The position numbers were made by a program, and so were the translations under genes. 64,000 nucleotides of DNA, taken from positions 96,001 through 160,000 of the IMG/VR virus record IMGVR_UViG_3300029288_000057; one strand, given 5' to 3'. Source of the stretch: a virus. Taxonomy: Duplodnaviria > Caudoviricetes. Under the pieces are notes generated by a model. It was not told the DNA's origin, did not search any database, and saw only the letters and a program-made list of their open reading frames with translations. Positions 1 to 55,157 of the stretch are shown here, one piece after another (position 1 is the stretch's first letter; every line of letters starts with the position of its first letter).

Positions 1-95
1 TTGCCCATATCTATAATCATTCCTTCTCCGCCTCTGGCAATTTCCTTGCTTTCGTTTATGTTAACGACGTCTCCAACTTTATTGAACAGCTTCAT
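1..95 (-). CDS. Ser/Thr protein kinase, N-terminal fragment (runs off the left edge; not in ORF track)
   Basis: ATG at 95 translates MKLFNKVGDVVNINESKEIARGGEGMIIDMG; RGGEG Gly-rich loop; overlaps the PP2C stop; expected third member of a vWA-PP2C-kinase triad. Confidence 0.75.
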   Translation of the reverse strand, partial: MKLFNKVGDVVNINESKEIARGGEGMIIDMG

Positions 96-864
96 TTTCG
101 TCTTCTATAATTTCTACAAAAGTTATATGCGCAATAGACAAATCATCACTTGGGGCAATGTTTTTGTCGTCAAGAATATTGCAAATTCTTGCAAGTCCTA
201 TTTTGTTGTTTAAAAGAAAACCACTTTCGAAAAAACGTTTTATTATTTCGTCCTTTTCGTCATCAGTTATATATCTGTTCTCATCATAATTTCTAAATGA
301 ATCAATTCCATCACTCATTACAGCAATGGTTTTTTCAATTTTAAAATTATATTTGTAAACATTGTTTTTCCACACATCTGAGAATAGGCTTGTCAAATAA
401 TAAGCAATGTAGTCTGGCGCATTCTCATTGGTTGGTTTTATTGTGTGAATTTTCCCGTCAATGTAAATACTTCCATCTCCAACAATAATTGAATATGACT
501 GTTTTGTTTTTAAGTTTACAGCAGATAGTACTATTGTTGAGAGTATTTCGGTTAAATCAAGCACAAAATAATTGAATGAGTATCTCAGTTCATTAAAAAA
601 CAATTCAATTAAAGTGTGCACAACATCTTCCAAGTTTGATTCTTCGTTTATGCTTTCAAGAAAAGTTTTGTGTTGAATGGCTATTTTCTTGAATATTTTT
701 GCAAAAAGTCCAGACGCAAAATATGAATCTCTCCCAGTAGAACAGCCATCAAATACAATGATGACTGCGATTTGATTGTAAGAGAAGACGAGGGATTCGT
801 CTTCACACCTGTGGGCGTGAGCTCTCCCTCGTCTTGTTACTTGCCGTGATTTAACTTCAAACAT
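79..864 (-). CDS. PP2C-like protein phosphatase
   Basis: CED, VFDGCS, VGDG, MSDG and DDLS motifs of the PP2C/SpoIIE fold. Confidence 0.85.
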   Translation of the reverse strand: MFEVKSRQVTRRGRAHAHRCEDESLVFSYNQIAVIIVFDGCSTGRDSYFASGLFAKIFKKIAIQHKTFLESINEESNLEDVVHTLIELFFNELRYSFNYFVLDLTEILSTIVLSAVNLKTKQSYSIIVGDGSIYIDGKIHTIKPTNENAPDYIAYYLTSLFSDVWKNNVYKYNFKIEKTIAVMSDGIDSFRNYDENRYITDDEKDEIIKRFFESGFLLNNKIGLARICNILDDKNIAPSDDLSIAHITFVEIIEDENEAVQ

Positions 865-867
865 TTT

Positions 868-1566
868 TTAGAAGTTTAAATTCTGAGAAATGTTCTGGCC
901 GTTTGAAACGCTTGTCACAGAACTGCTGATGATAGCAACAGCTTTTCTGATGTTGTCACCAAGAACTGCTAAAGACTGAAATCCCAAAGCGTCAAATGCT
1001 TCTTTGAAATACTGGTCTTCACCAATTCCCAACAGGACAGAAGAGAATGTCATAATGTTCTGCTCTTCTTTGTTCAGTTCAATCAGTTTGTCTTTCACAT
1101 ACTGAGCATCTGAGTCAGGAGAGGCATTGTTTTCGCCGTCAGTAATTACAAAAAGAATAGTTTTTGCTTTTACGCCAGTTTTCTGGAGAGAATCTCTGTA
1201 ATCAATTGCCTTGTCCAAAGCCATTCTTGCAGCTGCGTATAATGCAGTTGCACCGTTTCTTGGAGACAGTTTGAATTCTTCAACTTCTGTTACTGGCTGA
1301 AACCCTGTGAGAACTTCAACATCATTATCAAAAACAATAGTTGATATTAACAACCTGTCTTTAACATGGCTTTTTGACATATTTTCAACGAATTCATTGG
1401 CTGCTTTATTCAGCTCTTCACACCTTGTGGTGCTCAAACTTGTAACCCGCTGAGACATAGACCCAGATAGGTCAAATGCAAATACTGCATTTATCGTTTC
1501 TTCGACTTCAATGTTTTCAGGATTAAAATCCGCATCTCCGCCAAAATCAAATTTAACTTTTTCCAT
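868..1566 (-). CDS. vWA-domain protein (TerY-like)
   Basis: MIDAS DLSGS, T in GATALY, ITDG. Confidence 0.85.
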   Translation of the reverse strand: MEKVKFDFGGDADFNPENIEVEETINAVFAFDLSGSMSQRVTSLSTTRCEELNKAANEFVENMSKSHVKDRLLISTIVFDNDVEVLTGFQPVTEVEEFKLSPRNGATALYAAARMALDKAIDYRDSLQKTGVKAKTILFVITDGENNASPDSDAQYVKDKLIELNKEEQNIMTFSSVLLGIGEDQYFKEAFDALGFQSLAVLGDNIRKAVAIISSSVTSVSNGQNISQNLNF

Positions 1567-1585
1567 TTTTTTTGAATTAAGGGGT

Positions 1586-2395
1586 TTATAAAATGTCGTC
1601 TGTGCTTTTGACGAACTTGATTCCTAATGCTTTTGCCTCATCGTAAATTGGTTGTGCCAATTTTTCGAATGTAACCCCAGGGGCAACTTCTCCTGGAACA
1701 GGGGACATACAGTCTTCGAGAATAACGAATTTCTTAGCAAGAGCTTCGTCAAACTTCATAGCCTGTTTCAATGAGGTAGCTGTACAATGTGTTTTAGCTT
1801 CACCTGCAAAATAAACGACATCATAATCGTTAAGAATTTTTGCAAGTCTGTCATTAAACTGAGTTCCATCTTCTCCTGGAATTGGAATGTTTGCCTGGAA
1901 AACTCCGAAATGCTCAGTTAAAGGATGAACGCCTTTTTTTACAATCTTATGGAACAAACATTCTGATGTTGACCAGTCTTTTACTGCATCCATAAGTACG
2001 GGGAAGATTGCTGCGCCTTCACTTCCATCAACACAATGGACTGGCCATATGCAATGTGGAAATTCTCCTTGTGTTGCAAGGTCTTCTAAATATTTAAGAG
2101 CTGCTTGTGGATAAAACCTTGGAGTCCATATTCCACTTTTCACATCTTCCACAGAAATAATGGTAAATGGATTTGGAAACTTTCCTTCTTTATCCTGCCA
2201 AAATGCTGGATGGCTGATGTCAATAACCATATGGCTGTCCTGAGTTAATCCAATGTAGCCGATTTTGGATTTGTTTCTTGTAATAAAGCTAGCAAGACGT
2301 TCCATGTCTTTATCCGCTCCTGGGACTGAAAGAGCACCAGTTGGTTTGCAGAAGTCATTCTGCCCATCAATAATTAAAACTGCAATTTTTTTCAT
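1586..2395 (-). CDS. pncA: Nicotinamidase (isochorismatase family)
   Basis: IDGQNDFC, GALSV, QDSH, WPVHC, KG, GEAKTHC catalytic motifs. Confidence 0.85.
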   Translation of the reverse strand: MKKIAVLIIDGQNDFCKPTGALSVPGADKDMERLASFITRNKSKIGYIGLTQDSHMVIDISHPAFWQDKEGKFPNPFTIISVEDVKSGIWTPRFYPQAALKYLEDLATQGEFPHCIWPVHCVDGSEGAAIFPVLMDAVKDWSTSECLFHKIVKKGVHPLTEHFGVFQANIPIPGEDGTQFNDRLAKILNDYDVVYFAGEAKTHCTATSLKQAMKFDEALAKKFVILEDCMSPVPGEVAPGVTFEKLAQPIYDEAKALGIKFVKSTDDIL

Positions 2396-2487: not shown

Positions 2488-3723
2488 TTATTTTATTTCT
2501 GACGTGTCAGAATTTGTGGTATCATCTTTTTTTTCTGGGGCGTCTCCTGTTGTGTATTTATCATAAAAGACTCCATATACATACACACGATTAAAGTTGT
2601 CTTTCACTCCATAAAGCAATATGTTTGGCTGTCTTGGGAAATCAACTCCGTACATAATAATTTGTGGAGAAACAACCGCATACATTACCACAGCATAATC
2701 TTGAATTTGTGGTCTTGGGTTTTCTTTGACGATTTCTTCTATAAATTTTTTCCAATCTTTTTCTTTTTCAATTGGAATTTCAATAAATTCACGTCCAGCA
2801 AAAATATCGGTTTTTTGTTGTAAACATTTATTGTCGCAGGCATCCTTACAACATTTAAAGATTCCGAATCTTTGTTCCTTAAATGAGTTAATCCATATTT
2901 GTTCGAGGGGAGTTATTAAAATATTGATGAGCTCTCCAAAATCTTTTGTCCAGCTTCTCATTGAGAGACACGGGATAACCTTTCCGTCATAAGTGATTCC
3001 AAGAGATGATATTCCAGCTCCGCATGGCATATCGTTTCTTATATTATCAGAAAGAATTATTCTTGCTCCACTTTTTTCTACCTTTTCCTTAAGAACATTA
3101 AACGCAGCTTCGTTGTCTGGATGGTATAATGCGAGCGGGTTGTTTGGGTCATCATAAACAGTAAATTGAATAGTCCACATTTTGTTGTTTTTTTTCACGA
3201 ACTCTTCAATTGAATCAAAAATATAAAGGTTTTGAATATTAAAATTTGTAATTACTGTATAATTTTCGAATTTTTCTCTTTGTGTGGGTGTTTCCGTTTC
3301 TACTACAAGAACATCAGGAGATACAAATTTTGGATTTAATAATTCTTTTATTTTTTCCAATTCAGAACTTGTGTTTACAGAAATCCCTGTCCAATCGTAT
3401 TTTTTAAGAATTTCAAATGTGGCTGAGTTGGATGAGTCTCCAAGAGAATTAGGATTTACCAAGATTTTACAAACAATATTCTTTTCTTTGAATATCTTTA
3501 GGATTTCTTCATGCATGGAAATGCTCAAAAGAAGCGGGTCTCCTCCACTAATATTAATTTCTTCTGGGGGATATTCAGCAATGGCTTTCGCAATTTTAAG
3601 AATTGTTTCATTATCAGTTTTTGTGTTTCTGACAGATTTGGAACCACAATAAGTGCATCCGTTTTTACACTCTCCTGTAATCTCCCAGATAATTTCTCTG
3701 AGTTTAATGTGCTGTTGTTGCAT
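2488..3723 (-). CDS. Radical SAM/SPASM-twitch enzyme, splicease (PlpX)-like, with C-terminal XYG-repeat tail
   Basis: WEITGECKNGCTYCGS (CxxxCxxC), SGGDP, CGAGISSLGITYDGKVIPCLS; tail carries MYAV/MYGV/LYGV/VYGV. Confidence 0.85.
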   Translation of the reverse strand: MQQQHIKLREIIWEITGECKNGCTYCGSKSVRNTKTDNETILKIAKAIAEYPPEEINISGGDPLLLSISMHEEILKIFKEKNIVCKILVNPNSLGDSSNSATFEILKKYDWTGISVNTSSELEKIKELLNPKFVSPDVLVVETETPTQREKFENYTVITNFNIQNLYIFDSIEEFVKKNNKMWTIQFTVYDDPNNPLALYHPDNEAAFNVLKEKVEKSGARIILSDNIRNDMPCGAGISSLGITYDGKVIPCLSMRSWTKDFGELINILITPLEQIWINSFKEQRFGIFKCCKDACDNKCLQQKTDIFAGREFIEIPIEKEKDWKKFIEEIVKENPRPQIQDYAVVMYAVVSPQIIMYGVDFPRQPNILLYGVKDNFNRVYVYGVFYDKYTTGDAPEKKDDTTNSDTSEIK

Positions 3724-3737
3724 AATTTTAAATTATT

Positions 3738-4196
3738 TTATTGTTGTCTACCGCTAATGTCTACGGTAGGGTGACATGCTTCAATAATAAACAACCTTCC
3801 TGGTTCTTCTCTGAGACACAATTCTAGCCTTTTGTCCTCTAAACAGCAGAGCCAGCTTTCTTTGCCATTATAATCGTATTTTTTTACCAACAATTGTTCA
3901 ACATAACTTCTACTAAGATTATAATAAATTACGGTAAACGATATACAAGTATCATTCTTAAAATAACAACTTATTATTCTAAAATTACTTATATCATGTA
4001 CAATCATTTTGCTTTCTTTTTTTAGACTCCTTGTTTCAAGAAAAACATCTTTCTTTTCCCACATTTCTGTTGAATCTGGGCTCATTACATATAGTTCATT
4101 GGCTATAATTTGAAATGAGCTTTTCCCAATGTAGTTTTGGGAAAAAATTAAAGTTGTACAAAAAAGCACAATTAAGAGTAAAATAATTTTTTTCAT
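3738..4196 (-). CDS. Hypothetical exported protein
   Basis: MKK + hydrophobic signal peptide ending FSQ; TATATTTG at 4224-4231. Confidence 0.6.
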   Translation of the reverse strand: MKKIILLLIVLFCTTLIFSQNYIGKSSFQIIANELYVMSPDSTEMWEKKDVFLETRSLKKESKMIVHDISNFRIISCYFKNDTCISFTVIYYNLSRSYVEQLLVKKYDYNGKESWLCCLEDKRLELCLREEPGRLFIIEACHPTVDISGRQQ

Positions 4197-5667: not shown

Positions 5668-6345
5668 TTAAGGAAGTAATAGCGTTGCCAAATTCATGGC
5701 AATCCCAAGTTTGCCGACACATTTACTGGATGTTTTTCCCTTTCCAACAATATAGGCAATGTGTTCGTTGTTTTCCTTCATTTCTTGTTTGTCATTAGCC
5801 ACAACCAAATCACAGTTATTCCTTACTAATGATTCATAGGCAATGTCAATCAATTCTTCGTGAGTCTTGTTTACTTCAAATTTAAACCCCACTAGCCTCA
5901 CTGTGTGGTTCCATTTCTTTATGAATGAGATAATCTTCGGATTAACAACAATTCGGTCTCTGAGGGAATCTATGAAGGCGTGGGGGTCATTACTCTTAAG
6001 TTTAATGTTGGATGGTTTGAACCCAAAGTCGCTTATCGCCATGGAATGAATTACAACATCAACTTTCGGGACAAGTCTTTCCATTATGTCATATACATCT
6101 TGAGTGCTGTCGGCATAAATAACTTCAACCATATTTTTCTCGTTGTCCTCCACCAATGTATGAAGATTACAAACACTTGGAATTGCTGAGCCCTTACTGC
6201 AGACATAATAAATCTTTTCAATATTATGATTGAGATAGAATGTGTTTGCTATCTGTGCACCCAACTTTCCAGTGCTGATGTTTGTTAAAACCCGAACCTC
6301 ATCAATGTGTTCACGGGTTCCTCCGCTTGTTACTAAAATTTTCAT
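5668..6345 (-). CDS. coaB: Phosphopantothenate-cysteine ligase (CoaB, DFP C-terminal domain)
   Basis: VTSGGTREHIDEVRVLTNISTGKLG, HSMAISDF, GFKFE, VVAND. Confidence 0.85.
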   Translation of the reverse strand: MKILVTSGGTREHIDEVRVLTNISTGKLGAQIANTFYLNHNIEKIYYVCSKGSAIPSVCNLHTLVEDNEKNMVEVIYADSTQDVYDIMERLVPKVDVVIHSMAISDFGFKPSNIKLKSNDPHAFIDSLRDRIVVNPKIISFIKKWNHTVRLVGFKFEVNKTHEELIDIAYESLVRNNCDLVVANDKQEMKENNEHIAYIVGKGKTSSKCVGKLGIAMNLATLLLP

Positions 6346-6633: not shown

Positions 6634-7725
6634 TTAAAATTTATAATATTTTTTCATTGACCTTATTAGAAATGGGGTGGGGTCTAACAAACCTTCGGGA
6701 AGAGTTTGTCCCCACTCTTTATCAATATTTCTTAAGAACCCTGGTTTTCTCAATTCCAGATGAAGCATGCTGGTCGGGCGACCTTTGTCTTTCTTGAGAA
6801 CTTGCAGAACGGTGCCAAGCAAATCTCCCGCATTAACCTCATCTCCAGTCTTCCATTGTGAATGTACTTGAATCTCTCCGTAAACGATGAGCCCATCGTC
6901 ACCCTCGATTGAAATAGCGTCTGTGTCGTTCCACCAGTCACAATTTGCCTTTATTCCAGTCCATGGACGAATATCTTTCACAATGCCCTTTTGCACCGCA
7001 TAAACAGAAGTTCCAATTGGAGCATATAAATCAACGCCTCTGTGCCTATCATATCTTCTCATTGCTCCAAATGCTCCAAAATGATGCTTTATCGGAATTT
7101 CAACATCTCGTTCAAGATTTATTCTTAAAAAAGAATTTGAGTCTTCCGTGGTTCTGATTGGTTTTATCAAATTAAACGGCCAACTCCAAATAATTCTTGT
7201 ATCCAGGCCTTCAATAATCTCGTTAACAATATCACGTGGTTTTGGTAATTTTCCAATTCCCGTAACTCCACAAGCAAGCTCTCCATAAACAGGTTCAATA
7301 ACATGACAACCTCTACTGGAAAGTATTTGCAAATTACTTGTACATGCGTCGCTTTCATACATTACTGTATTCATAGCTGGGCATATAAATTTTGGAATGT
7401 TTTTGGGGATTGCAATAAAAGTAGAAGAAACAAGGTCGTCGGCAATTCCAAATGTGAATTTTGCAATTATATTTGCAGTTGCAGGGACACAGACAAAAGC
7501 ATCACAATGTTGAGCTTCCTGAATGTGTGTTATTGTATTTACATTTTCTTCGGTGATATAGTGGCCGTCAGAAACGGCGCCAAGGACGGTGGGAGTTACG
7601 AAGTCAAGAGCATTTTTTGTTGTAATAACGTGAACTTCGTATCCGTTACGCTTAAGCCCACTAATTACATCTGCAGCTTTGTATGCTGAGATTCCACCAG
7701 AAATAGCAACTAAAATAGTTTTCAT
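6634..7725 (-). CDS. coaC: Fusion: phosphopantothenoylcysteine decarboxylase (CoaC flavoprotein) + M23 peptidase domain
   Basis: SGGISAYK, PATAN, PAMN, LACGVTGIG in aa 1-175; HRGVDLYAPIGTSVYA and SMLHLE in the C-terminal half. Confidence 0.8.
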   Translation of the reverse strand: MKTILVAISGGISAYKAADVISGLKRNGYEVHVITTKNALDFVTPTVLGAVSDGHYITEENVNTITHIQEAQHCDAFVCVPATANIIAKFTFGIADDLVSSTFIAIPKNIPKFICPAMNTVMYESDACTSNLQILSSRGCHVIEPVYGELACGVTGIGKLPKPRDIVNEIIEGLDTRIIWSWPFNLIKPIRTTEDSNSFLRINLERDVEIPIKHHFGAFGAMRRYDRHRGVDLYAPIGTSVYAVQKGIVKDIRPWTGIKANCDWWNDTDAISIEGDDGLIVYGEIQVHSQWKTGDEVNAGDLLGTVLQVLKKDKGRPTSMLHLELRKPGFLRNIDKEWGQTLPEGLLDPTPFLIRSMKKYYKF

Positions 7726-16600: not shown

Positions 16601-17797
16601 TTATTTTTTTGCCATTTTATTTATCTGCCACTCTACAAACTTAATTGTTTCTTCGTCTCCAACGTGTTTTGTGGGAGAATCAGAAAGCTTAATGGCTGGC
16701 ATTCCGTTTATTTCAAACAATTTTATGACAATATTCATTGGCTTCACGCCGATAATATCATTTGTCAAATTGGTGCCAATTCCATATGACTTCCTTATTT
16801 CTTTCCTTCGATAATTATCAATTTTTATTACCAACTCTGGGTTTAGAGCATCAGAGTACACAATCGTTTTTGTAGTTGGGTCAATCCCAAGACTTTTATA
16901 ATGGTCAATAATTTTATCTGTAAAAACGAATGGGTCTCCACTGTCATGTCTCACTCCAGTAAACAAGTTTGCATATTTGCTATCAAAATCTCGCAAAAAA
17001 GCATCTGTTGTGAATGTGTCTGACAAGGCAATTCCAAGATTTCCATTGTATGTCTTTATCCAATATTCCATGGCAATTCTGTTGGCGTGAGCATATCCGA
17101 ACATTGCTGCAATCCCAGAAACCCATTCGTGTGCATATGTTCCAATTACTTTGATTCCGTTGTATAAACCAAGTTCAACATTGCTTGTTCCTGCAAAGTT
17201 TTCATACATGGAAGAACCACAGAATATGTCAACAACACTAGCGTGAACATCTTCGGACTTTGCCCTTCGTGTTCCGAAGTCTACTACCTGTATGTTGTTT
17301 AAATAAAAGTATTGTGCTTTGTCCTGTGCCTTTTCTAAAGATTTGGCTATATCAACATTTTCGTCACTTTGACCTGTCATTTCGTAATACAACTTACAAA
17401 TATCTTTCATAAGAGTTGTTTCCCACGGGCATGTTCTGTACCAATATCCTGCAATTTGCATCGATAGGTCTCCGCCGTTTTGTACGATGCCAACTTCACT
17501 TGGGTCATATCTATATCCTTCAAGAAAATCAAAGAATGCGGCTGGCAAATAAGGACTCCTTGCTTCAAATTCCAGTCTACGTTGTTTTGACATTTTTTTG
17601 TTTCGGTACTCATCAACAATTTTTCTCAATCTGACAGCAAATCCATCTGGGTATTGAGTGTGGCTTCTATCAATAAATTCATAACGAACCTTTGCCTCTG
17701 GAAAATTCTTTATAATAGCCCACATCATTGTAAATTTGTACAAGTCTGCCCAAAGAATGGAATCTTTGTTAATGGACTCTGGAGATTTAGTTTTCAT
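16601..17797 (-). CDS. pncB: Nicotinate phosphoribosyltransferase
   Basis: DLYKFTM, DFGTRR, GTSN, GTYAHEW, RHDSGD, YGIGTNLT, KLSD. Confidence 0.92.
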   Translation of the reverse strand: MKTKSPESINKDSILWADLYKFTMMWAIIKNFPEAKVRYEFIDRSHTQYPDGFAVRLRKIVDEYRNKKMSKQRRLEFEARSPYLPAAFFDFLEGYRYDPSEVGIVQNGGDLSMQIAGYWYRTCPWETTLMKDICKLYYEMTGQSDENVDIAKSLEKAQDKAQYFYLNNIQVVDFGTRRAKSEDVHASVVDIFCGSSMYENFAGTSNVELGLYNGIKVIGTYAHEWVSGIAAMFGYAHANRIAMEYWIKTYNGNLGIALSDTFTTDAFLRDFDSKYANLFTGVRHDSGDPFVFTDKIIDHYKSLGIDPTTKTIVYSDALNPELVIKIDNYRRKEIRKSYGIGTNLTNDIIGVKPMNIVIKLFEINGMPAIKLSDSPTKHVGDEETIKFVEWQINKMAKK

Positions 17798-19238: not shown

Positions 19239-20624
19239 ATGGAAACAATAAAGAAAAGAATAAGAAAAATATTATTAGAAAATTACATACAAGAAAACAA
19301 TGATAATTTTTTTCGTACTGATATGGTAGTAAAAGATAGCGATAAAAGTGATATTTTAAACATAAAAGATAAACTTAATGAAAAAGGATTTAAAATTTGG
19401 ATTGTTGGGGGGGCGGTCAGAGATACAGTTAAAAATGCTATAAAACTATCAAAAAACCCTACGGATGAAACATTAGATACGCCAAAGGATTTCGATTTGG
19501 TTACAGATGCTGTTCCAGGTCAAGTAATTGATATATTTAAGGATGCCAGTTTTGTTTCAAACATTTTGAATATTGGTGAATCTTTTGCGATTATGTTTCT
19601 TGTCACAAAACACGGAAATAGATATGAATTGGCCACATTAAGAAGTGAGTCTGGTGGAGGAAGGAAGCCAGATTCAGTGCAATATGAAAAAACAATAGAA
19701 AAGGATGCTCAAAGAAGAGATTTAAAAATTAATGCTTTATACTATGAAATATTAGGAACAAATGAAAATGGGTTTTATGGAATAGTACACGATTTAGTTG
19801 GAGGTATAGATGATATTAAAACAAATTCATTAAACACCGTTGGAGACCCAAGAGAAAGGTTTAACGAAGACCCCCTAAGAAAGATTCGTGCTATTCGTTT
19901 TGCTTCTAAAATGGGCTCTCAAATACCAGACAACGTAGCAGATGCAATCAGAGAAGGTGGCACATCATTAACAGACCCCACAGGAAAAATTGTGTCAAAT
20001 GAAAGAATAAGAGAAGAGTTCTACAAGGGAGTTAAAAGCTCAAAAAGTGTAAGGTATTTTTTAGCGTTATTGGTCAGTTTTGATTTTATTAAACACCTAT
20101 TTGCAGACCTTAGAATGTCACCAGACTCTTTTGTTGAAGAGAGGCATCCAATTGTTTTGTTGGCTAATTTATTAAAACGCAATGGAATAAAAGAAATAGA
20201 AAGGAACTTATCAACAAAGAAATACAGCGCTGATGAAATAAACAGCGTTAAGTTTTTAGTGTCACTTCTTGACCTTAAAGAGAACACTGCGTCTGCAATA
20301 AAAAGATTTTATCTTCAAAAGGCAAAGAATTCAAATCCAAAAATAAATGAAAAATTTTACCCAATGACGGATGATGTGATATATAAATTTGCAGATTTAA
20401 ATCACATTGACAAATTGAAAATAAAGAACTTTTTAAGATTGGCAAACGAATTTGTACAGCCTTCTGAATTGTTAAAATCGTTGGGATATGAACGTGAGGC
20501 TCTTGGAATGGCAATTGCAAGACTTGAGAAGGAGTTTTATAAAAACCCAAATAGAGTTAAAAACATAATTAGTTCTGGTGACGCAGAGGAAATAAAGAAA
20601 TTAATCTTTATTGGAAAATCTTAA
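19239..20624 (+). CDS. cca: tRNA nucleotidyltransferase (CCA-adding/poly(A) polymerase family) with IKKRIRKILLE leader
   Basis: VGGAVRD, DFD, E.ATLR, DAQRRDLKINAL, EDPLRKIRAIRF, ERIREE. Confidence 0.88.
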   Translation: METIKKRIRKILLENYIQENNDNFFRTDMVVKDSDKSDILNIKDKLNEKGFKIWIVGGAVRDTVKNAIKLSKNPTDETLDTPKDFDLVTDAVPGQVIDIFKDASFVSNILNIGESFAIMFLVTKHGNRYELATLRSESGGGRKPDSVQYEKTIEKDAQRRDLKINALYYEILGTNENGFYGIVHDLVGGIDDIKTNSLNTVGDPRERFNEDPLRKIRAIRFASKMGSQIPDNVADAIREGGTSLTDPTGKIVSNERIREEFYKGVKSSKSVRYFLALLVSFDFIKHLFADLRMSPDSFVEERHPIVLLANLLKRNGIKEIERNLSTKKYSADEINSVKFLVSLLDLKENTASAIKRFYLQKAKNSNPKINEKFYPMTDDVIYKFADLNHIDKLKIKNFLRLANEFVQPSELLKSLGYEREALGMAIARLEKEFYKNPNRVKNIISSGDAEEIKKLIFIGKS

Positions 20625-22367: not shown

Positions 22368-24482
22368 ATGAATTCCGATAAAAGAAATCCATATATTTTA
22401 AGAAGAAACTTCAATTTTTTTAACGAAACAATTTCTCCAGAAGATATTGACGTACAAGTAAACGAGCCTAAAGATACGTTAAATAAAGAAATTTGGGATA
22501 ACGGAAGGTTAAAAAAAGAAGTGAGAATTGCTATGTTAAAAATAGCAAAGGCATTTAAGGAATATTTAAAATTAGACACACGATTAAAAGATGTTATTTT
22601 TACTGGAAGTTTAGCCAACTATAACTGGACTTTGGTGAGTGATATCGATATTCACTTAATTCTTGATTTATCATCAATGGACGAACCTGAAGAGTTCTTG
22701 GCAGAATATATTGCTGCAAAAAAGGCTGTGTGGAACGAAAATCACAACATTAAAATAAAGGGATTTGAAGTAGAGCTTTATGCAAAAGATAAAGAAAATT
22801 TATTTTCATCAAAGGGTATTTACAGCGTTCTTAGAGATGCGTGGATTCAAAAACCAGAAAAATATACACAAGACATTGACGAGCCTGCTATAAAAGAAAA
22901 AGCAGCTGTTGTCATGAATGATATTGATGATTTGCAACAAGCAACGGACGATGAGGAAATATTAACGAAGTCAGAAAAGATAAAGGAAAGAATAAAAAAA
23001 CTAAGACAATCTGGGCTAGAACAGGGGGGAGAATTTTCTGTTGAAAATCTTGCTTTTAAGGTTCTGAGAAAGCTTGGATATTTAGAAAAACTTTCTGACA
23101 TTAAAAAGGGCGCTTTTGATACATCTTTGTCCTTGGCCGAAACGTTGGATGAACACGAAGAAGGAAGTCAACGTCCAAGTTCGATTGGGTCCAATTATAA
23201 TGAAGTAAAGGTTCTATATTCATTGACAAAAGATGATTTTGCATTTGTTCCTGCTAGTCTAAAATATTGGGACATAAACACGGTAAAGGCACAACGATGG
23301 AATTTGTTAGTTAATTTTAGAGATGAAGAGGATTACCAAAGACAAATAAAAAGCAAAAGATTTTTTATGATTTTATATGATGATAAATTGTATTTCTACA
23401 AACCAGAGTACAAAAGACTGTATGATAATCATGAAAATATAGTAGATTCAAAAAAAATGAACCCAACTTTTGTCTACCAGATGAACGAAATAATCAAAGG
23501 GACATTAAATAGTGCAATAACCGAATCTTCTATGAAAACAAAAACGCTTCTCAAAGAAGGGAAAGATGAGGCACCAAAGAAATACGGGTGTTTAATGTTA
23601 GATTTGAACATAAAGAATTGGAAAGAAATTACCGATAAGATAAGCCAGGAAGATGTTTATGATGCACCTGGATTTGAAATAGAAGACAGTCCCCACATTA
23701 CTGCACTGTTTGGCTTCATATACACTGAAACCACGCCAGAAGATGTAAAGAGAGTGACAAAAAAGATATTGAGCGGGAAAGATAAAGTAAAGGTGAAATT
23801 AAAAGAGATTTCTTTGTTTGAAAACAAAGATTATGATGTTTTAAAGTTTGATATTGATTCCTCTGATTTGCATAAACTCAATGAGGCGTTAAGAGAAAAG
23901 TTTCCTTACAAAAACGACCATCCCGATTATCATCCACACATGACAATTGCTTATTTAAAGCCAGGGCTTGGGAAAAAGTACGCAAAAAAATTAAAAAAGA
24001 ATATTGTTTTCGAAAGTGATTCTTTCGTTTATTCATATCCACCAAATGAAAAGTATTATTTCAACTTAAAAAAAGGAGAAAACACTTTGGGGGTTGAGCA
24101 TGGGATTGATGATATGACCGAGGAAAAGGTTGAAATTATAAGAAATTTTATAAACTTTGTTTGTAACAGACTTGAGCTCCAGGAACCAGTATCGATTTAT
24201 CTTCACAAGGGAAGAGATGAGTATATAGTAACAACTGCATCATATGTTCCAGACGAGAATTCAAATCATATCAGATGTAACGGTAGAGCGCTTGTTGATA
24301 TATTAAGAAGCATTGCGCATGAGCTCACTCATAACAGACAGAGAGAGGTTGAGAGTTTTGCGTCTGGGGAAAATGTTCAAACTATTGGCGGCTGGATAGA
24401 AGACGAAGCAAATGCAAAGGCTGGAATTTTAATTAAAGATTTCGCAATGAATCAAGGTTTTGATGAAATTTATGATTTATAA
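22368..24482 (+). CDS. Multidomain protein: Pol-beta nucleotidyltransferase + Acb1/gp57B-like 2H phosphoesterase + HEXXH domain
   Basis: GSLANYNW..SDIDIH; YGCLML, PHITA and HPHMTIAY; AHELTH. Confidence 0.78.
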   Translation: MNSDKRNPYILRRNFNFFNETISPEDIDVQVNEPKDTLNKEIWDNGRLKKEVRIAMLKIAKAFKEYLKLDTRLKDVIFTGSLANYNWTLVSDIDIHLILDLSSMDEPEEFLAEYIAAKKAVWNENHNIKIKGFEVELYAKDKENLFSSKGIYSVLRDAWIQKPEKYTQDIDEPAIKEKAAVVMNDIDDLQQATDDEEILTKSEKIKERIKKLRQSGLEQGGEFSVENLAFKVLRKLGYLEKLSDIKKGAFDTSLSLAETLDEHEEGSQRPSSIGSNYNEVKVLYSLTKDDFAFVPASLKYWDINTVKAQRWNLLVNFRDEEDYQRQIKSKRFFMILYDDKLYFYKPEYKRLYDNHENIVDSKKMNPTFVYQMNEIIKGTLNSAITESSMKTKTLLKEGKDEAPKKYGCLMLDLNIKNWKEITDKISQEDVYDAPGFEIEDSPHITALFGFIYTETTPEDVKRVTKKILSGKDKVKVKLKEISLFENKDYDVLKFDIDSSDLHKLNEALREKFPYKNDHPDYHPHMTIAYLKPGLGKKYAKKLKKNIVFESDSFVYSYPPNEKYYFNLKKGENTLGVEHGIDDMTEEKVEIIRNFINFVCNRLELQEPVSIYLHKGRDEYIVTTASYVPDENSNHIRCNGRALVDILRSIAHELTHNRQREVESFASGENVQTIGGWIEDEANAKAGILIKDFAMNQGFDEIYDL

Positions 24483-25730: not shown

Positions 25731-27020
25731 TTAAACAGATACAGGTGCCTTTATAGCAGGCAGTGGGTTATAATCAATTATTTCAATATCTTCAGCTCTA
25801 AAATCTGTAATGTTTTTTATTGCAGGATTTAGTTTCAGCGTTGGGAGGGGAGGTCCATAATAATTTCCTATAAGCTCTGACGTATGAGTGAGATTAATAT
25901 TATACCAATAATCAATTGGTTCCTTAGATTTGTTCCACGGATTAAAGTCTGCTATTGTTGCGCCTTCTCCTTCTCTGTGCGTTCTATTTAAAAATTCATT
26001 AACCTGTTCTTTATGATTAAGGTATAAATGCAAGTCTCCAAATGTATGAACAAACTTATAAGGAACCATATTTACAACTTGAGCGACCATATGTAATAAC
26101 AATGAAAATGAAGCAATGTTAAATGGAACTCCTAAAAATGTATCGCAGGACCTCTGATAGAGCTGGAGTGAGAGTCTAAATTTTGGGATGTTAAACTCAT
26201 CACATTTTTTAACATTATCATCACCTGGTTCTAGATATAAAATTTTATCTACCTTTTTGTTTTTTTCCCACAAACCAACTCTTTCTTGAATCGTTAATGG
26301 CTCAGTAATAAATTGAAATATTGTGTGACACGGCCTAAGTGCCATTTGAGATAGTTCGCTAACATCCCACGCAGAAACCATAATTCCCCTATCGTCTGGT
26401 CTGTTTTTCAAAGTATCAATGGCTACTTGTATTTGGTTAATTCCGTTTATTTTTACTTTTTCCATCTTGCCTTGAATGTGGTGAGTGGGTCCTCCAAAAG
26501 ACCCTCCGTAACTATATCCCCCAACTTCTTCCCAAGATGTTCTTCCGCCCCAATCGACCCACTGTTTTCCATAAACAGGACCAAGTTCTCCCCAGTGTTT
26601 TGCGCACTCATCACAACTTTTTATATCTTCAATAAACTCTTTTTGTGTCATGTTTCTGAGGCAACCTAAAATCGGGTCGTCAACTAACAATTTGACATCT
26701 GGCTCTTGCAGATTAGAGACATGTTTCACATACTTGTCATAAGCCCATTCGTCCCAAATGTGCACATTATTATCAACAAGATATTTAATGTTTGTATTGC
26801 CGAATTCTTTATATTTTTCTGGCATTGCATTAAGAAACCATAATAGTTCGTGTATAACGCCCTTTGAATAGGTGTTTTTAAGAGTTAACAGTGGAAACCC
26901 ATTTTTCATATAAAAAACAGATTGATGGCCGAAGGTTGATATAGTACCAGTACCTGTGCGGTCAGTTTTTATTCTTCCTTCTTTAAGAATAGTTGTAATT
27001 AATTCTACGTATTGTTTCAT
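25731..27020 (-). CDS. thyA: Thymidylate synthase with several insertions
   Basis: DRTGTGT, ELLWFL, LGPVYG.QW, LRPCH, YQRSCD, GVPFN, GDLHLY; start set at MKQY. Confidence 0.92.
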   Translation of the reverse strand: MKQYVELITTILKEGRIKTDRTGTGTISTFGHQSVFYMKNGFPLLTLKNTYSKGVIHELLWFLNAMPEKYKEFGNTNIKYLVDNNVHIWDEWAYDKYVKHVSNLQEPDVKLLVDDPILGCLRNMTQKEFIEDIKSCDECAKHWGELGPVYGKQWVDWGGRTSWEEVGGYSYGGSFGGPTHHIQGKMEKVKINGINQIQVAIDTLKNRPDDRGIMVSAWDVSELSQMALRPCHTIFQFITEPLTIQERVGLWEKNKKVDKILYLEPGDDNVKKCDEFNIPKFRLSLQLYQRSCDTFLGVPFNIASFSLLLHMVAQVVNMVPYKFVHTFGDLHLYLNHKEQVNEFLNRTHREGEGATIADFNPWNKSKEPIDYWYNINLTHTSELIGNYYGPPLPTLKLNPAIKNITDFRAEDIEIIDYNPLPAIKAPVSV

Positions 27021-27247
27021 ATTGTTTTTTTGCTGGAATTGTTTAACCAATCATTTATTTCTATAATATTGCATTCTATAATAGATTTTTTTATTCTTTC
27101 CTTAAATTCTTTTAGCGTTATTTGTTCATTATGAAATGAGTGGCTGAAATTATTCAAATTCCAGCCGCATGGTTCCGCATTTAAATCTATTACCAAATGT
27201 ATTTTTGATTGTATTTCATCTAACCATTCTCTCGATGTCTTTTCCAT
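27017..27247 (-). CDS. Hypothetical protein
   Basis: MEKTSREW start; ATGA overlap with thyA. Confidence 0.55.
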   Translation of the reverse strand: MEKTSREWLDEIQSKIHLVIDLNAEPCGWNLNNFSHSFHNEQITLKEFKERIKKSIIECNIIEINDWLNNSSKKTI

Positions 27248-51404: not shown

Positions 51405-54400
51405 TTATGATATGTTTATTTGTGTTATGCCTACATGCTCGGTTACATCCAGAACTTCTTGTGGAATTCCCTCATACGTACTGTAAACTTCTATAATATT
51501 GTTTACACTATCTTTTATCTCATTCCTATGTGTAATTACAAGAACATTCTTATATTTATTCTTTAAATATTGTAATACGGTTATAATACCAGAAATTAAA
51601 TCATCATCCAAGGTACCAAACCCTTCATCAATAATATTTAAGGAAGGTTTGATTAAACTGCTCATATAATGAAGAGCATCTTTGATGACGACGCTGGAAA
51701 TGAATTTCTGAGCCCCAGAGGCAGACGATAATGGCAGCGAATACTTTTTGTTGTTTCCGTAATAAAACTCTTCTATAACGTCTCCCTTTGCGTTTACGCT
51801 CATTTCTATCTTGAAGTTTACAATCGTACTTAAGATGCTATTGATTTTATTATTAATGATTGGCAGCTTCTTTCTGATTATTTTTGCTGGTATCCCATCT
51901 CTATGAACTGCTTGGAGATATAATGAATATTTTTTATATATCTTTTCTGCAGCTTTTACCTCATCAAGTTTGTTGTTATAATTTTCAAGATTGTTTTTTT
52001 CGACTCGAATGTCTCCGTTTTTATTGGTTATTTGCTGGGAAAGTCCATAAATAGAAAATTTATATGCCTTACTTTTTTCTTCTAGTTGAGATATTTCTAC
52101 TTCAATTGAAGAGTTGTGTGTCAAGCACATTGCAATTTCTTTTATTTTATTTAGGTTGGTGTTTAAATTTTCCAAAAACCTAACGTTTCCGTCAATATTA
52201 GATTTGGCTGAGTTCATTAAAGAGATTTTTTCATCAACAAGTTTGTTAGATGAAATAATGGCTTGCGACTGCAACAACAAATTAAGTCGTTCTATTGTTT
52301 TAACGTTATAATCTATTGCGTTTTTTGTTTGTTGCAGTTGTTGGTTTTTTGACTCAACCTCTTCATTGTGTTTAATAATATCTTGTGATTGTGATATTAA
52401 TTTGATTTTTTGAACTAACGCTTCTTTTTTTGCTTTTCCCGATGTTAGAGTAAGACGAAGCGTTTGTAAATTAGTGCTGTAAATTTCACAGTCATGATTA
52501 TGCTTTGTGTCTGTGTAGTATTGATTAATAGAACTATTATAAGTGTTAACAAGTTGAGTTTTTATTGTAATTTCATTTACACACTGGTTATACAACTCTA
52601 CGTTCGGCTCAGCTGTAACGTGGCCACAAGTGGGACATGTCTCCCCCCTGTGTGTTGGTAATTTGGAATTTAAATTCGCTATGTCAAAATTTAAATTCTG
52701 AATCTCCAAATCAAGCCCTTCTATACTATAAATCTGCCTAATTGGATTTTCTTTAATCCACTTCTCTGTTTCAACATATTTTGCCTTGTTTTTATCAAAC
52801 AGTCGACTTTCTTCTACAAGTTGTTGGTTTAACGACTCAACCGTTTCGCCTTCGTTAAAAGGAAGTTCTTTTTTAAAATTAGTAGAAACCCAATTAAACA
52901 ATTCACTATAATTTCGATTGTTAATTTCTAATTGAGCTTGGATATTTGATATGTTTGCAGATGCATTTTCTACTATGGACAACTCTGGTCCTAATTTCTC
53001 AAGCAAATCATTTTCATCAAATGGTAGTTCTTTTTTTAGATTTGATGATGTCCATAATAGCAACTCTTGATATATTTTTTCATTCTCTTCTATGAGTTTT
53101 TTTGACTCATCTATTCTAACCAAAACAAATTCTTCATTTGTTATTTCACAACTTGTAAGTGGAGTGAATTGTTTGAGAGTTTTGGTCAATTCAATTATTT
53201 TAGCGTCAACTGCTTCTTTTTTCTTTTCAGACTCATCTTTTTCCTTAACAAAAGAATCATATTCTCCTTGCAGTATGGAAATTTTATTTTCTATTTCCAA
53301 TACACTTTGCTGGATTGATGCTGTGTCTCCAAGTTCTTTTTGTTTTTTCTTTACATCATTAAATTTTTTGTTTCCATATTCGTATCTATCTCTAAAAGAT
53401 TCAAGGCCTATGTATTTGTTCACTAAATCATTTTTAGGCTGTTGTTCTTGATTTATATAATCATCCTTTCCTCCTTGAGCTTGCAGACAAACCTTTGTAA
53501 AGTCATCAACTGTACCAATTGCTTTTAAAACAATGTTCTTAACTTCTTTTTTGTCATTGGCTTTTTTGTCTGATATTTCACTTACCCATTTTTGTTTTCC
53601 GTCATCGTCAATGATTAATTTTTTGTATTCTATCGGGTATGTGTTAGATGATTCTCCGTGTTTATCAACTTTTGTAATTACCTCTCTTTTTATATAATAT
53701 TTTTCTGCCTCTATTGTAAGATTAATTTTTACATATGCCTTGTTGGATGATGTATAAATGTTCACAACTTTTTTGGCACTTCCACCACCAAGAATGTGCT
53801 GATATAGTCCCCACACGATTGCCTTTACAACATTTGACTTCCCAGAATAATTTTTACCAAATATTCCCGTGGCGCCCCTTAACTTTTCCAGGTTGATGAC
53901 AATTGGTTTTTCGGGGAATGAAAAAATGTTAGAAATTTCTACACAATCGACATCCCAAAGTTTTACATCTTCAACCTTTTCTGAAATTTCAAGTTCTTTA
54001 TCTATGAATTTTGCCAACTCCAAAACTTCTTTAACCACATCTTCTTCTTCGTCTGGATTGATTTCTTTTAGATAATCAGTCAATTGCTGCAGAAAAGTTT
54101 CCTTGTTTAAAGAGTCTGCTACTTCTGTATTGTCTTGCTGTATCTTTTTTATATCAGAGAATTCAACCTTTACAACATCACACCCATATTTTTGTTTTAC
54201 AAGTTTGGCTATTTGATTTTCCTTTTCTGTTGAGTAGTTTTCTTCATAGTCCTCCCAAATGATATAGACTTTTGTTTGCTTTTTGTTATTGCTGAATTGT
54301 ATGTTTTCAATCCTTTCCTCAATAAGCTCACCCTTGGCAATCGTTATCTTGGCAAACCCATAATCGTTAAGGATGTATCTCCTCTGGAATGAATTTGTTT

Positions 54401-55157
54401 CCAAATCCCACATAAGATAACCCTTATCTATTGATTCACCGTAATCCTGCTGTATCAACGAACCTGCATATGCCATACTTTCATCATCTCTAAAAGATTG
54501 ATGTTCATGAATGTCTCCCATTAATACAGCATCAAAATTATTAAATGTAGTAACATTTAATAAATCATCTCCCACCAACTCATAACCATTATCTCCCCTT
54601 GCCCCCTTCAGCTGTCCATGATACAAGGCTATATATTTGACACCAGCATCTTTTTGAGTTAATGTGAGAATTTTGTTGTCCTTACAAGAATAAATTCCAT
54701 AAACCAACTCATCAGATATTTTATAAAAATTGCTATCTGGGAAAAAGTAAATTCCTTTTTTTGAAAAATCTATTGTGTTGACATTTTCCTTGTTGATGAT
54801 GAAGGCTCTTTTAATGCTTTTTTTGCCCGTTTCTGCGGCAAGGTCAGAGAATCTATCTGCCACCTTAAAAATCGGCGTTATAGTGTCTCCCTGTTCTTTT
54901 TGTTGTAAATTTAAGTCATGGTTCCCCAGCATAATGTCAACGGGGGCTATTTTTGCTAAATTTATTAAAAATTCAGAGGTCAAATCCAAAGACCCTGGAG
55001 ACATATTTACTTTTAAGTGATTTAAATCCCCAGTGATTACTATTCTATCTGGTTTTTGTTTTTTCAAATCATCATACAGACGTTTAAAAACTTCTCTATA
55101 TTCGTCATGTCTGCTTGCAAATTTAATGTGGATATCTGATAGATGGGCTATTTTCAT
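51405..55157 (-). CDS. Fused Mre11/SbcD nuclease - Rad50/SbcC ATPase (gp47-gp46-like)
   Basis: SDIH, TGD, GNHD, GDIH; GKNYSGKS, CPTCG hook, SGAQ, IIDEGFGTLD, ITH. Confidence 0.9.
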   Translation of the reverse strand: MKIAHLSDIHIKFASRHDEYREVFKRLYDDLKKQKPDRIVITGDLNHLKVNMSPGSLDLTSEFLINLAKIAPVDIMLGNHDLNLQQKEQGDTITPIFKVADRFSDLAAETGKKSIKRAFIINKENVNTIDFSKKGIYFFPDSNFYKISDELVYGIYSCKDNKILTLTQKDAGVKYIALYHGQLKGARGDNGYELVGDDLLNVTTFNNFDAVLMGDIHEHQSFRDDESMAYAGSLIQQDYGESIDKGYLMWDLETNSFQRRYILNDYGFAKITIAKGELIEERIENIQFSNNKKQTKVYIIWEDYEENYSTEKENQIAKLVKQKYGCDVVKVEFSDIKKIQQDNTEVADSLNKETFLQQLTDYLKEINPDEEEDVVKEVLELAKFIDKELEISEKVEDVKLWDVDCVEISNIFSFPEKPIVINLEKLRGATGIFGKNYSGKSNVVKAIVWGLYQHILGGGSAKKVVNIYTSSNKAYVKINLTIEAEKYYIKREVITKVDKHGESSNTYPIEYKKLIIDDDGKQKWVSEISDKKANDKKEVKNIVLKAIGTVDDFTKVCLQAQGGKDDYINQEQQPKNDLVNKYIGLESFRDRYEYGNKKFNDVKKKQKELGDTASIQQSVLEIENKISILQGEYDSFVKEKDESEKKKEAVDAKIIELTKTLKQFTPLTSCEITNEEFVLVRIDESKKLIEENEKIYQELLLWTSSNLKKELPFDENDLLEKLGPELSIVENASANISNIQAQLEINNRNYSELFNWVSTNFKKELPFNEGETVESLNQQLVEESRLFDKNKAKYVETEKWIKENPIRQIYSIEGLDLEIQNLNFDIANLNSKLPTHRGETCPTCGHVTAEPNVELYNQCVNEITIKTQLVNTYNSSINQYYTDTKHNHDCEIYSTNLQTLRLTLTSGKAKKEALVQKIKLISQSQDIIKHNEEVESKNQQLQQTKNAIDYNVKTIERLNLLLQSQAIISSNKLVDEKISLMNSAKSNIDGNVRFLENLNTNLNKIKEIAMCLTHNSSIEVEISQLEEKSKAYKFSIYGLSQQITNKNGDIRVEKNNLENYNNKLDEVKAAEKIYKKYSLYLQAVHRDGIPAKIIRKKLPIINNKINSILSTIVNFKIEMSVNAKGDVIEEFYYGNNKKYSLPLSSASGAQKFISSVVIKDALHYMSSLIKPSLNIIDEGFGTLDDDLISGIITVLQYLKNKYKNVLVITHRNEIKDSVNNIIEVYSTYEGIPQEVLDVTEHVGITQINIS

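Follow-up and report, generated by a model that had tools for sequence, protein, structure and literature searches.

A phage radical SAM enzyme with a tail of repeated tyrosine units

We analyzed a 64,000-nucleotide stretch of viral DNA (the window; positions 96,001 to 160,000 of IMG/VR record IMGVR_UViG_3300029288_000057) in which one gene encodes a radical S-adenosylmethionine (SAM) enzyme that ends in a tail of short, tyrosine-centred units. The gene occupies positions 2488-3723 on the minus strand, the strand of all its features given below, and is complete: at the positions given in a preliminary description of the locus, the open reading frame (ORF) list and the translation show an open frame of 411 amino acids followed by a stop. 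In the encoded protein, named P0001 here, Pfam recognizes a Radical_SAM domain (PF04055; 40.7 bits against a threshold of 29.5) at residues 14-131 (3331-3684) and a SPASM domain (PF13186; 25.6 bits against 21.5) at residues 234-296 (2836-3024). The AlphaFold2 (AF2) model and its fold matches extend the radical SAM core as a partial TIM barrel to about residue 225. Both sequence signatures reported in the preliminary description are present in the translation, namely W13-E-I-T...C19-x3-C23-x2-C26-G-S, whose cysteines (3646-3669) are the ligands of the radical SAM [4Fe-4S] cluster, and C234-G-A-G...G242-I...D246-G247-x4-C252-L-S. The latter opens the auxiliary cluster domain, which reads C234-x12-G247-x4-C252 ... 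C291-C292-x3-C296.

An amphipathic linker helix (residues 324-334, KDWKKFIEEIV; 2722-2754) marks the junction between the catalytic domain and the repeats. It is modelled with a predicted local distance difference test (pLDDT) score of ~73, is semi-conserved among close homologues and may act as a leader-like docking helix. The repeat region that follows (residues 342-385; 2569-2700) holds five Tyr units: DYAV (2689-2700), MYAV (2674-2685), MYGV (2644-2655), LYGV (2605-2616) and VYGV (2569-2580), three of them with Gly and two with Ala after the Tyr. The last four had been located earlier at exactly these positions, but the first was overlooked, so the earlier count of four was incomplete. Likewise, the earlier characterization of the tail as hydrophobic holds for the units themselves but not for the Pro-rich linkers that alternate with them or for the polar, acidic C-terminal end (residues 386-411; 2491-2568), which AF2 predicts to be disordered. 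The pattern Y[GA]V occurs five times in the 111-residue tail against 0.058 expected, a count reached in none of 200,000 composition-preserving shuffles, and does not occur in the 300-residue core.

The tail motif is conserved across a phage-specific family

A word-index search returned 237 homologues of P0001. When 1.84 billion cluster representatives were searched exhaustively with HMMER, 414 clusters matched at E<=1e-3, 178 of them at <=1e-30, and several of the matches are located on contigs 100-455 kb long. In bacteria and archaea, represented by 185,579 species genomes, the family was present on only two contigs of metagenome-assembled genomes (MAGs). In 301 genomes from the phylum of an archaeal MAG that carries a family fragment, we found only generic radical SAM/SPASM proteins (E 1e-11 to 1e-15), and the neighbourhood inspected in that phylum contained no gene with the Tyr motif. 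A tblastn search of 50,697 deposited phage genomes gave no matches. P0001 itself was correctly described as phage-encoded, since the 290,886-bp virus record from which the window was taken (CheckV completeness 91%) encodes a terminase large subunit and a portal protein; many phage-type DNA-metabolism genes lie within the window, and the source genome is a jumbo phage. The tailed family is essentially phage-specific, and its design is retained in hundreds of uncultured phage lineages.

We extracted the tail units from 201 family members. Their consensus is [V/T/I]-x-[V/M/L/A]-Y-[G 58% / A 41%]-[V 86%], in which the Tyr is fixed by the search pattern itself; the residue before it is V in 35%, M in 22%, L in 14% and A in 13% of units, and the alternatives to Val at +2 are mainly I, T and C. 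Units are flanked by Pro at about -5/-6 and +4/+5, recur with a spacing that peaks at 10-13 residues and number one to seven per protein. In all, the 201 tails contain 516 units, compared with 31 +/- 5.5 in shuffled tails. We considered a glycyl-radical site, of which the G-Y-A-V of pyruvate formate-lyase is an example, and rejected it; in the tail units V, M, L or A takes the place of the Gly before the Tyr, and the G or A comes after the Tyr.

Alignment of 148 sequences placed Y358 among only 25 invariant columns, alongside the cluster cysteines, and showed V360 and P338 to be conserved at >=90%; Y371 reached >=90% in an alignment of 30 sequences. Units are still present in members with only 36% identity, and the motif lies on the same chain as the catalytic domain in 204 of the 207 members in which a CCK[D/E] anchor could be located. 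Conservation of the tail among homologues, which the preliminary description had put forward as a check, was thus borne out for the motif and its Tyr across the family but not for the Gly after the Tyr. Besides the many Ala units, 32 of 213 members (15%) have no Y-G unit at all, including the closest homologue, P0002 (58% identity by BLASTP), and P0023, which has five YAV units.

The motif is not confined to the C terminus. Three N-terminally extended members that share only 41-44% identity with one another carry it within their first 10 residues (ILYGI in P0141, IMYAV in P0158 and YLYAV in P0196) in addition to C-terminal units. Occurrence at either end of the enzyme speaks for a linear motif on a tether and against a folded domain at the C terminus. 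Beyond the units, family tails end in charged stretches like that of P0001. Four of them (P0013, P0024, P0029 and P0115) finish in ...DDLPF, which we take to resemble the C-terminal protein-binding tip of bacterial single-stranded DNA-binding protein (SSB). In another phage locus, a 202-aa ORF (L008:3914-4522) that lies ~1.4 kb upstream of the radical SAM gene there has ...DDNIPF as its last residues. Mimics of the SSB tip may have been grafted onto various proteins in some large phages.

A few members, P0137, P0200 and P0167, have no tail. The gene for P0137 (L006:3001-3918, L007:1997-2914) lies beside genes for a methyltransferase, a GT2 glycosyltransferase and a NAD (nicotinamide adenine dinucleotide) epimerase/dehydratase. 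Some phages may have redeployed the catalytic domain without a tail.

The catalytic domain resembles peptide-modifying radical SAM enzymes

The three CxxxCxxC cysteines are invariant in the 148 aligned sequences. A full SPASM domain has the signature CX9-15GX4C ... CX2CX5CX3C ... C, with seven cysteines and two clusters. In this family only five auxiliary cysteines, C234, C252, C291, C292 and C296, are conserved (invariant or nearly so in the same alignment), from which we conclude that the SPASM domain is probably abridged and twitch-like. When the family profile was compared with sequences in the Protein Data Bank, it matched only lysine 2,3-aminomutase and BtrN; BtrN, a twitch enzyme, matches the auxiliary-domain region.

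AF2 modelled core residues 1-300 with pLDDT >90. In an exhaustive comparison with 48,161 solved chains, the best fold matches were ChlB (Z 19.9), CteB (19.8), SkfB (18.9), SuiB (18.6), anSME (18.5) and PqqE (18.2), all six of which are peptide- or protein-modifying radical SAM enzymes; viperin (17.5) and TigE (17.1) followed, and the small-molecule enzymes, BtrN (13.9) among them, came below the leading six. Foldseek concurs with this ranking and has PqqE as its top match. The P0001 core begins with residue 1, and the structural alignments start at residue 88 of CteB and residue 92 of SuiB; P0001 thus has no RRE, the recognition element of enzymes that act on peptides made by ribosomes and modified after translation (RiPPs). 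On these motifs and models, P0001 is an intact radical SAM/SPASM-type enzyme of the peptide-modifying fold class.

Profile searches were less specific. All matches of the family to NCBIfam hidden Markov models (HMMs) fall far below the cut-offs. The most consistent is TIGR04133, matched by 30 of 30 members with a best E of 1.7e-13. The three families named in the preliminary description, TIGR04103, TIGR04133 and TIGR03913, gave 20-32 bits against cut-offs of 425-725, so the comparison did not place the enzyme in any of them. By sequence, the tailed family is an orphan.

The tail may be the substrate of its own enzyme

Across the whole 291-kb phage, we found no ORF besides the radical SAM gene with at least three clustered Tyr units. 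Pfam detected no RRE-like neighbour, and neither Pfam nor NCBIfam detected a Y protein, a Nif11/NHLP-type precursor or a precursor with a helix-bearing leader among the neighbours. The earlier statement that no separate precursor or RRE partner lies nearby therefore stands. Because the motif is conserved with an invariant Tyr, varies in copy number and occurs N-terminally as well, and because there is no RRE, conserved partner gene or other ORF with the motif, we infer that the tail units are the substrate. We rate this reading, an enzyme fused to its own multi-copy substrate tail, as somewhat better than even; on it, the enzyme probably rewrites its own tail chemically. The earlier idea of a one-gene, self-modifying system fits the comparative tests that were run, but the PlpX-type splicease label attached to it does not find support.

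In the mechanism that we propose, the catalytic domain would be joined by a linker of ~40 residues to its own substrate, a disordered tail of five Pro-flanked units. The reduced [4Fe-4S] cluster would cleave SAM, and the 5'-deoxyadenosyl radical would take a hydrogen atom from one of the units once this had threaded into the active site, either in cis or between subunits (compare the borosin OphMA). The units would be modified one after another. The tether would stand in for the leader peptide and RRE of free-standing maturases.

Several results weigh against a self-modified tail. The tail was not confidently docked by AF2 in either full-length P0001 or a single-motif homologue: pLDDT in the P0001 tail is mostly <50, with a rise to ~61 at residues 351-360, and in the homologue it is 52-56. 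(A complex prediction of core 1-325 with tail 336-395 scored 0.00 but was run without controls and counts neither way.) In NCBIfam, no specific HMM link to any characterized peptide maturase was found. The few tail-less members suggest that the catalytic domain may have another substrate. We also found no split version in which the enzyme adjoins a separate motif peptide, and no motif ORF lies downstream of tail-less P0200 or P0137. A search for free-standing peptides resembling the tail (residues 325-400, near lengths) gave no candidates, in a word-index search that is insensitive to motifs so short.

The known radical SAM peptide maturases are separate from their precursors, which they find through leaders and RRE domains, and in the literature we found neither a radical SAM-substrate fusion nor this phage family described. 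If the tail is modified by its own enzyme, radical SAM peptide chemistry would gain a new architecture, in which the repeated core motifs are part of the enzyme, and this would be the first widespread RiPP-like system specific to phages. It would also offer a minimal, portable one-gene system without a leader, useful in peptide and protein engineering, and would raise the question of how large phages use post-translationally rewritten peptides during infection. A fuller proposal, which we put a little short of even, is that the protein would be the first of the radical SAM enzymes with a permanently attached multi-copy core peptide, in a phage-specific, one-gene RiPP-like system retained in hundreds of lineages of large phages, and that the tail, or peptides released from it, would bear Tyr-Val macrocycles or ketoamides and serve infection, such as through inhibition of host proteases or defence proteins. 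The phage genome yielded no prolyl oligopeptidase (Peptidase_S9), an enzyme that might cleave the tail at its Pro flanks.

A binding motif is the strongest alternative

The tail could instead be a multivalent short linear motif by which the enzyme is tethered to an assembly or to a partner from host or phage, or it could serve as an autoinhibitory pseudo-substrate; the real substrate would then be a different protein or some small molecule, for instance a nucleotide or sugar. Pro-flanked, disordered motifs that vary in copy number are typical of binding motifs, and the lack of confident docking, the tail-less members and the four endings with their presumed likeness to the SSB tip all sit well with such a role. 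A small-molecule substrate would agree with the fold ranks of viperin, BlsE and MoaA, which are not far below those of the peptide enzymes, and with the sugar-modifying genes near some homologues. However, a partner-binding motif would tend to be shared, and the motif cluster is found in no other ORF of the phage; the top fold matches modify peptides or proteins; and the motif is found at the N terminus too. An invariant Tyr with a fixed G/A and V in >200 diverged lineages without a conserved partner gene is more easily explained by recognition through the sole domain that is always present. We consider this alternative unlikely, yet the most serious competitor of a self-modified tail.

Candidate chemistries and comparison with known systems

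If the enzyme does modify its own tail, our favoured chemistry is a three-residue crosslink between Tyr(i) and Val(i+2), of the triceptide type, which would use both near-invariant positions of the unit; taken by itself, this assignment is tentative and rather doubtful. Val would offer a tertiary C-beta hydrogen that could plausibly be abstracted. Three-residue cyclophane-forming radical SAM enzymes act on precursors with repeated aromatic-X-X motifs and make bonds from Tyr C3 to C-beta(i+2), onto Ala too (PMC11002830). We compared the family with the triceptide maturases XncB, OscB, MscB, YxdB, HaaB, YhhB and ScaB. As in their substrates, the tail repeats an aromatic residue at i with a conserved residue at i+2, and Y-[G/A]-V fits this i/i+2 logic, a resemblance at the level of the motif only. 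Unlike the tail units, triceptide cores have mostly Asn, Asp, Arg, Ser or Ala, not Val, as i+2 partners, and they reside in separate precursors. An N-terminal RRE, expected of such maturases, is absent from P0001, and the XncB, OscB and MscB families were not among the best 25 of the 45-56 NCBIfam matches.

Tyramine excision, the reaction assumed in the preliminary description, ranks next; we regard it as unlikely, and a Tyr-Val crosslink as at least as likely. Spliceases (TIGR04103/IPR026482) excise tyramine at X-Tyr-Gly; their precursors are separate, and a Y protein may or may not take part (PMC11414181, PMC11626197, PMC11002830). Were P0001 of the PlpX/RhaX type, every X-Tyr-Gly in its tail would lose a tyramine equivalent (-135 Da), and the alpha-keto-beta-amino acid (ketoamide) residues left behind would inhibit proteases. 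Set beside the splicease/spliceotide systems PlpX/PlpY/PlpA, PcpX, RhaX/RhaA, RcsX and RasX, the family shares a radical SAM/SPASM-type enzyme and a Tyr-centred motif after a hydrophobic residue, and MYG and LYG are proven splice sites (PMC11626197). Known spliceases can process several sites per precursor with a dispensable leader (PMC11414181), and leader-independent action on protein tails is possible (PMC11414181, PMC11626197). A weak match to TIGR04103 was found in 28 of 30 members.

This match amounts in P0001 to 30.1 bits against a cut-off of 725, covers only profile positions 3-85 in the generic N-terminal part, and is non-specific, as the model also gave matches below the cut-off in 12 of 14 control genomes. 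Conservation is stronger for Val at +2 than for Gly at +1, which the XYG rule leaves unexplained, and the Ala units and the members that have no Y-G also speak against the splicease label; we found nothing in the literature on whether spliceases accept Y-A. Only five auxiliary cysteines are conserved, and there is no Y protein or Nif11/NHLP-type precursor. Unlike spliceases, moreover, this family has its putative substrate fused to the enzyme, has no leader, and is restricted to phages. These comparisons lower the standing of splicing chemistry and leave the specific splicease label unsupported. Epimerisation, hydroxylation or cleavage between C-alpha and C-beta would each be another conceivable outcome for the self-modified tail, and together we think them improbable.

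The fused arrangement has precedents in other enzyme classes. In borosins (PMC8429565) and in BURP cyclases (PMC10107690), enzyme and core are fused, the reaction is autocatalytic and the cores are often repeated. The OphMA-type N-methyltransferase borosins and the plant BURP-domain peptide cyclases resemble P0001 in having a catalytic domain and one or more core motifs in one polypeptide, which is an analogy of architecture and not homology. Their folds and chemistry are unrelated to those of P0001, the catalytic domains being a SAM methyltransferase and a copper BURP domain rather than a radical SAM domain, and their hosts are fungi, plants and bacteria, not phages.

PqqE and MftC are both cofactor-forming radical SAM/SPASM enzymes that modify the Tyr of a short peptide; in the case of MftC, a C-terminal Val-Tyr is the site at which Val and Tyr become linked. 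Unlike what we propose for the tailed family, PqqE and MftC modify single sites in separate peptides and need a PqqD-type RRE, and the scores of P0001 against their HMMs are far below the cut-offs.

A role in phage DNA hypermodification or sugar-nucleotide tailoring, with an incidental tail, is very improbable, and we rejected DNA hypermodification as the principal explanation: although thymidine hypermodification involves phage radical SAM enzymes (PMC8989533), the window holds a thymidylate-synthase-like gene and a separate sugar cluster of the same phage has three further radical SAM genes, the characterized DNA-modifying radical SAM enzyme M6 gp53 is spore-photoproduct-lyase-like and not SPASM-type (PMC8989533), the tailed gene lies outside the sugar cluster and is not paralogous to its radical SAM genes, no kinase or transferase neighbours are conserved with the tailed gene, and the invariant tail motif would go unexplained.

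Gene neighbourhood and other features of the phage

The neighbourhood of the radical SAM gene is shared only with the closest relative (L002) and is entirely different at distant homologue loci (L003, L004 and L006). Immediately upstream, at a distance of 14 nt, a gene at 3738-4196 (minus strand) encodes a protein of 152 aa, which contains several cysteines and has a segment like a signal peptide at its N terminus. It has no Pfam, PHROG or NCBIfam match, and its 55% identity to the counterpart at the same position in L002 indicates lineage-specific synteny. TIGR04133 is a radical SAM/lipoprotein family, and we considered the 152-aa protein as a partner on that account; we rejected it, as it has no family match and no counterpart is apparent beside distant homologues.

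Just downstream of the radical SAM gene, positions 79-2395 (minus strand) encode a PP2C phosphatase, a vWA protein and a nicotinamidase-like protein, and a nicotinamide phosphoribosyltransferase-like gene lies 13 kb from the radical SAM gene at 16601-17797 (minus strand). These genes suggest phage NAD salvage together with a vWA/PP2C signalling module. Phage coenzyme A genes are found at 5668-6345 and 6634-7725 (both on the minus strand); their products are a DFP protein resembling CoaB and a flavoprotein resembling CoaC that is fused to an M23 peptidase domain. The pair, M23 fusion included, is also present in L002.

Outside the window, the same phage carries a nonulosonic-acid-like sugar cluster (L012; G000:C1:191500-204000). 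Its genes encode NeuB, a NAD epimerase/dehydratase, a class IV aminotransferase, and GT2 and GT10 glycosyltransferases, along with two B12-binding radical SAM proteins (656 and 495 aa) and a short radical SAM/SPASM protein of 261 aa; these three are the non-paralogous radical SAM proteins mentioned above.

Elsewhere in the window, the thymidylate-synthase-like gene (25731-27050, minus strand) encodes 439 aa, which exceeds the profile length, and the protein may have an insertion or be of the hydroxymethylase type. A tRNA nucleotidyltransferase is encoded at 19239-20624 and a 704-aa protein with an RNA ligase domain at 22368-24482, both on the plus strand, and a 1250-aa SbcD-SbcC fusion is encoded at 51405-55157 on the minus strand.

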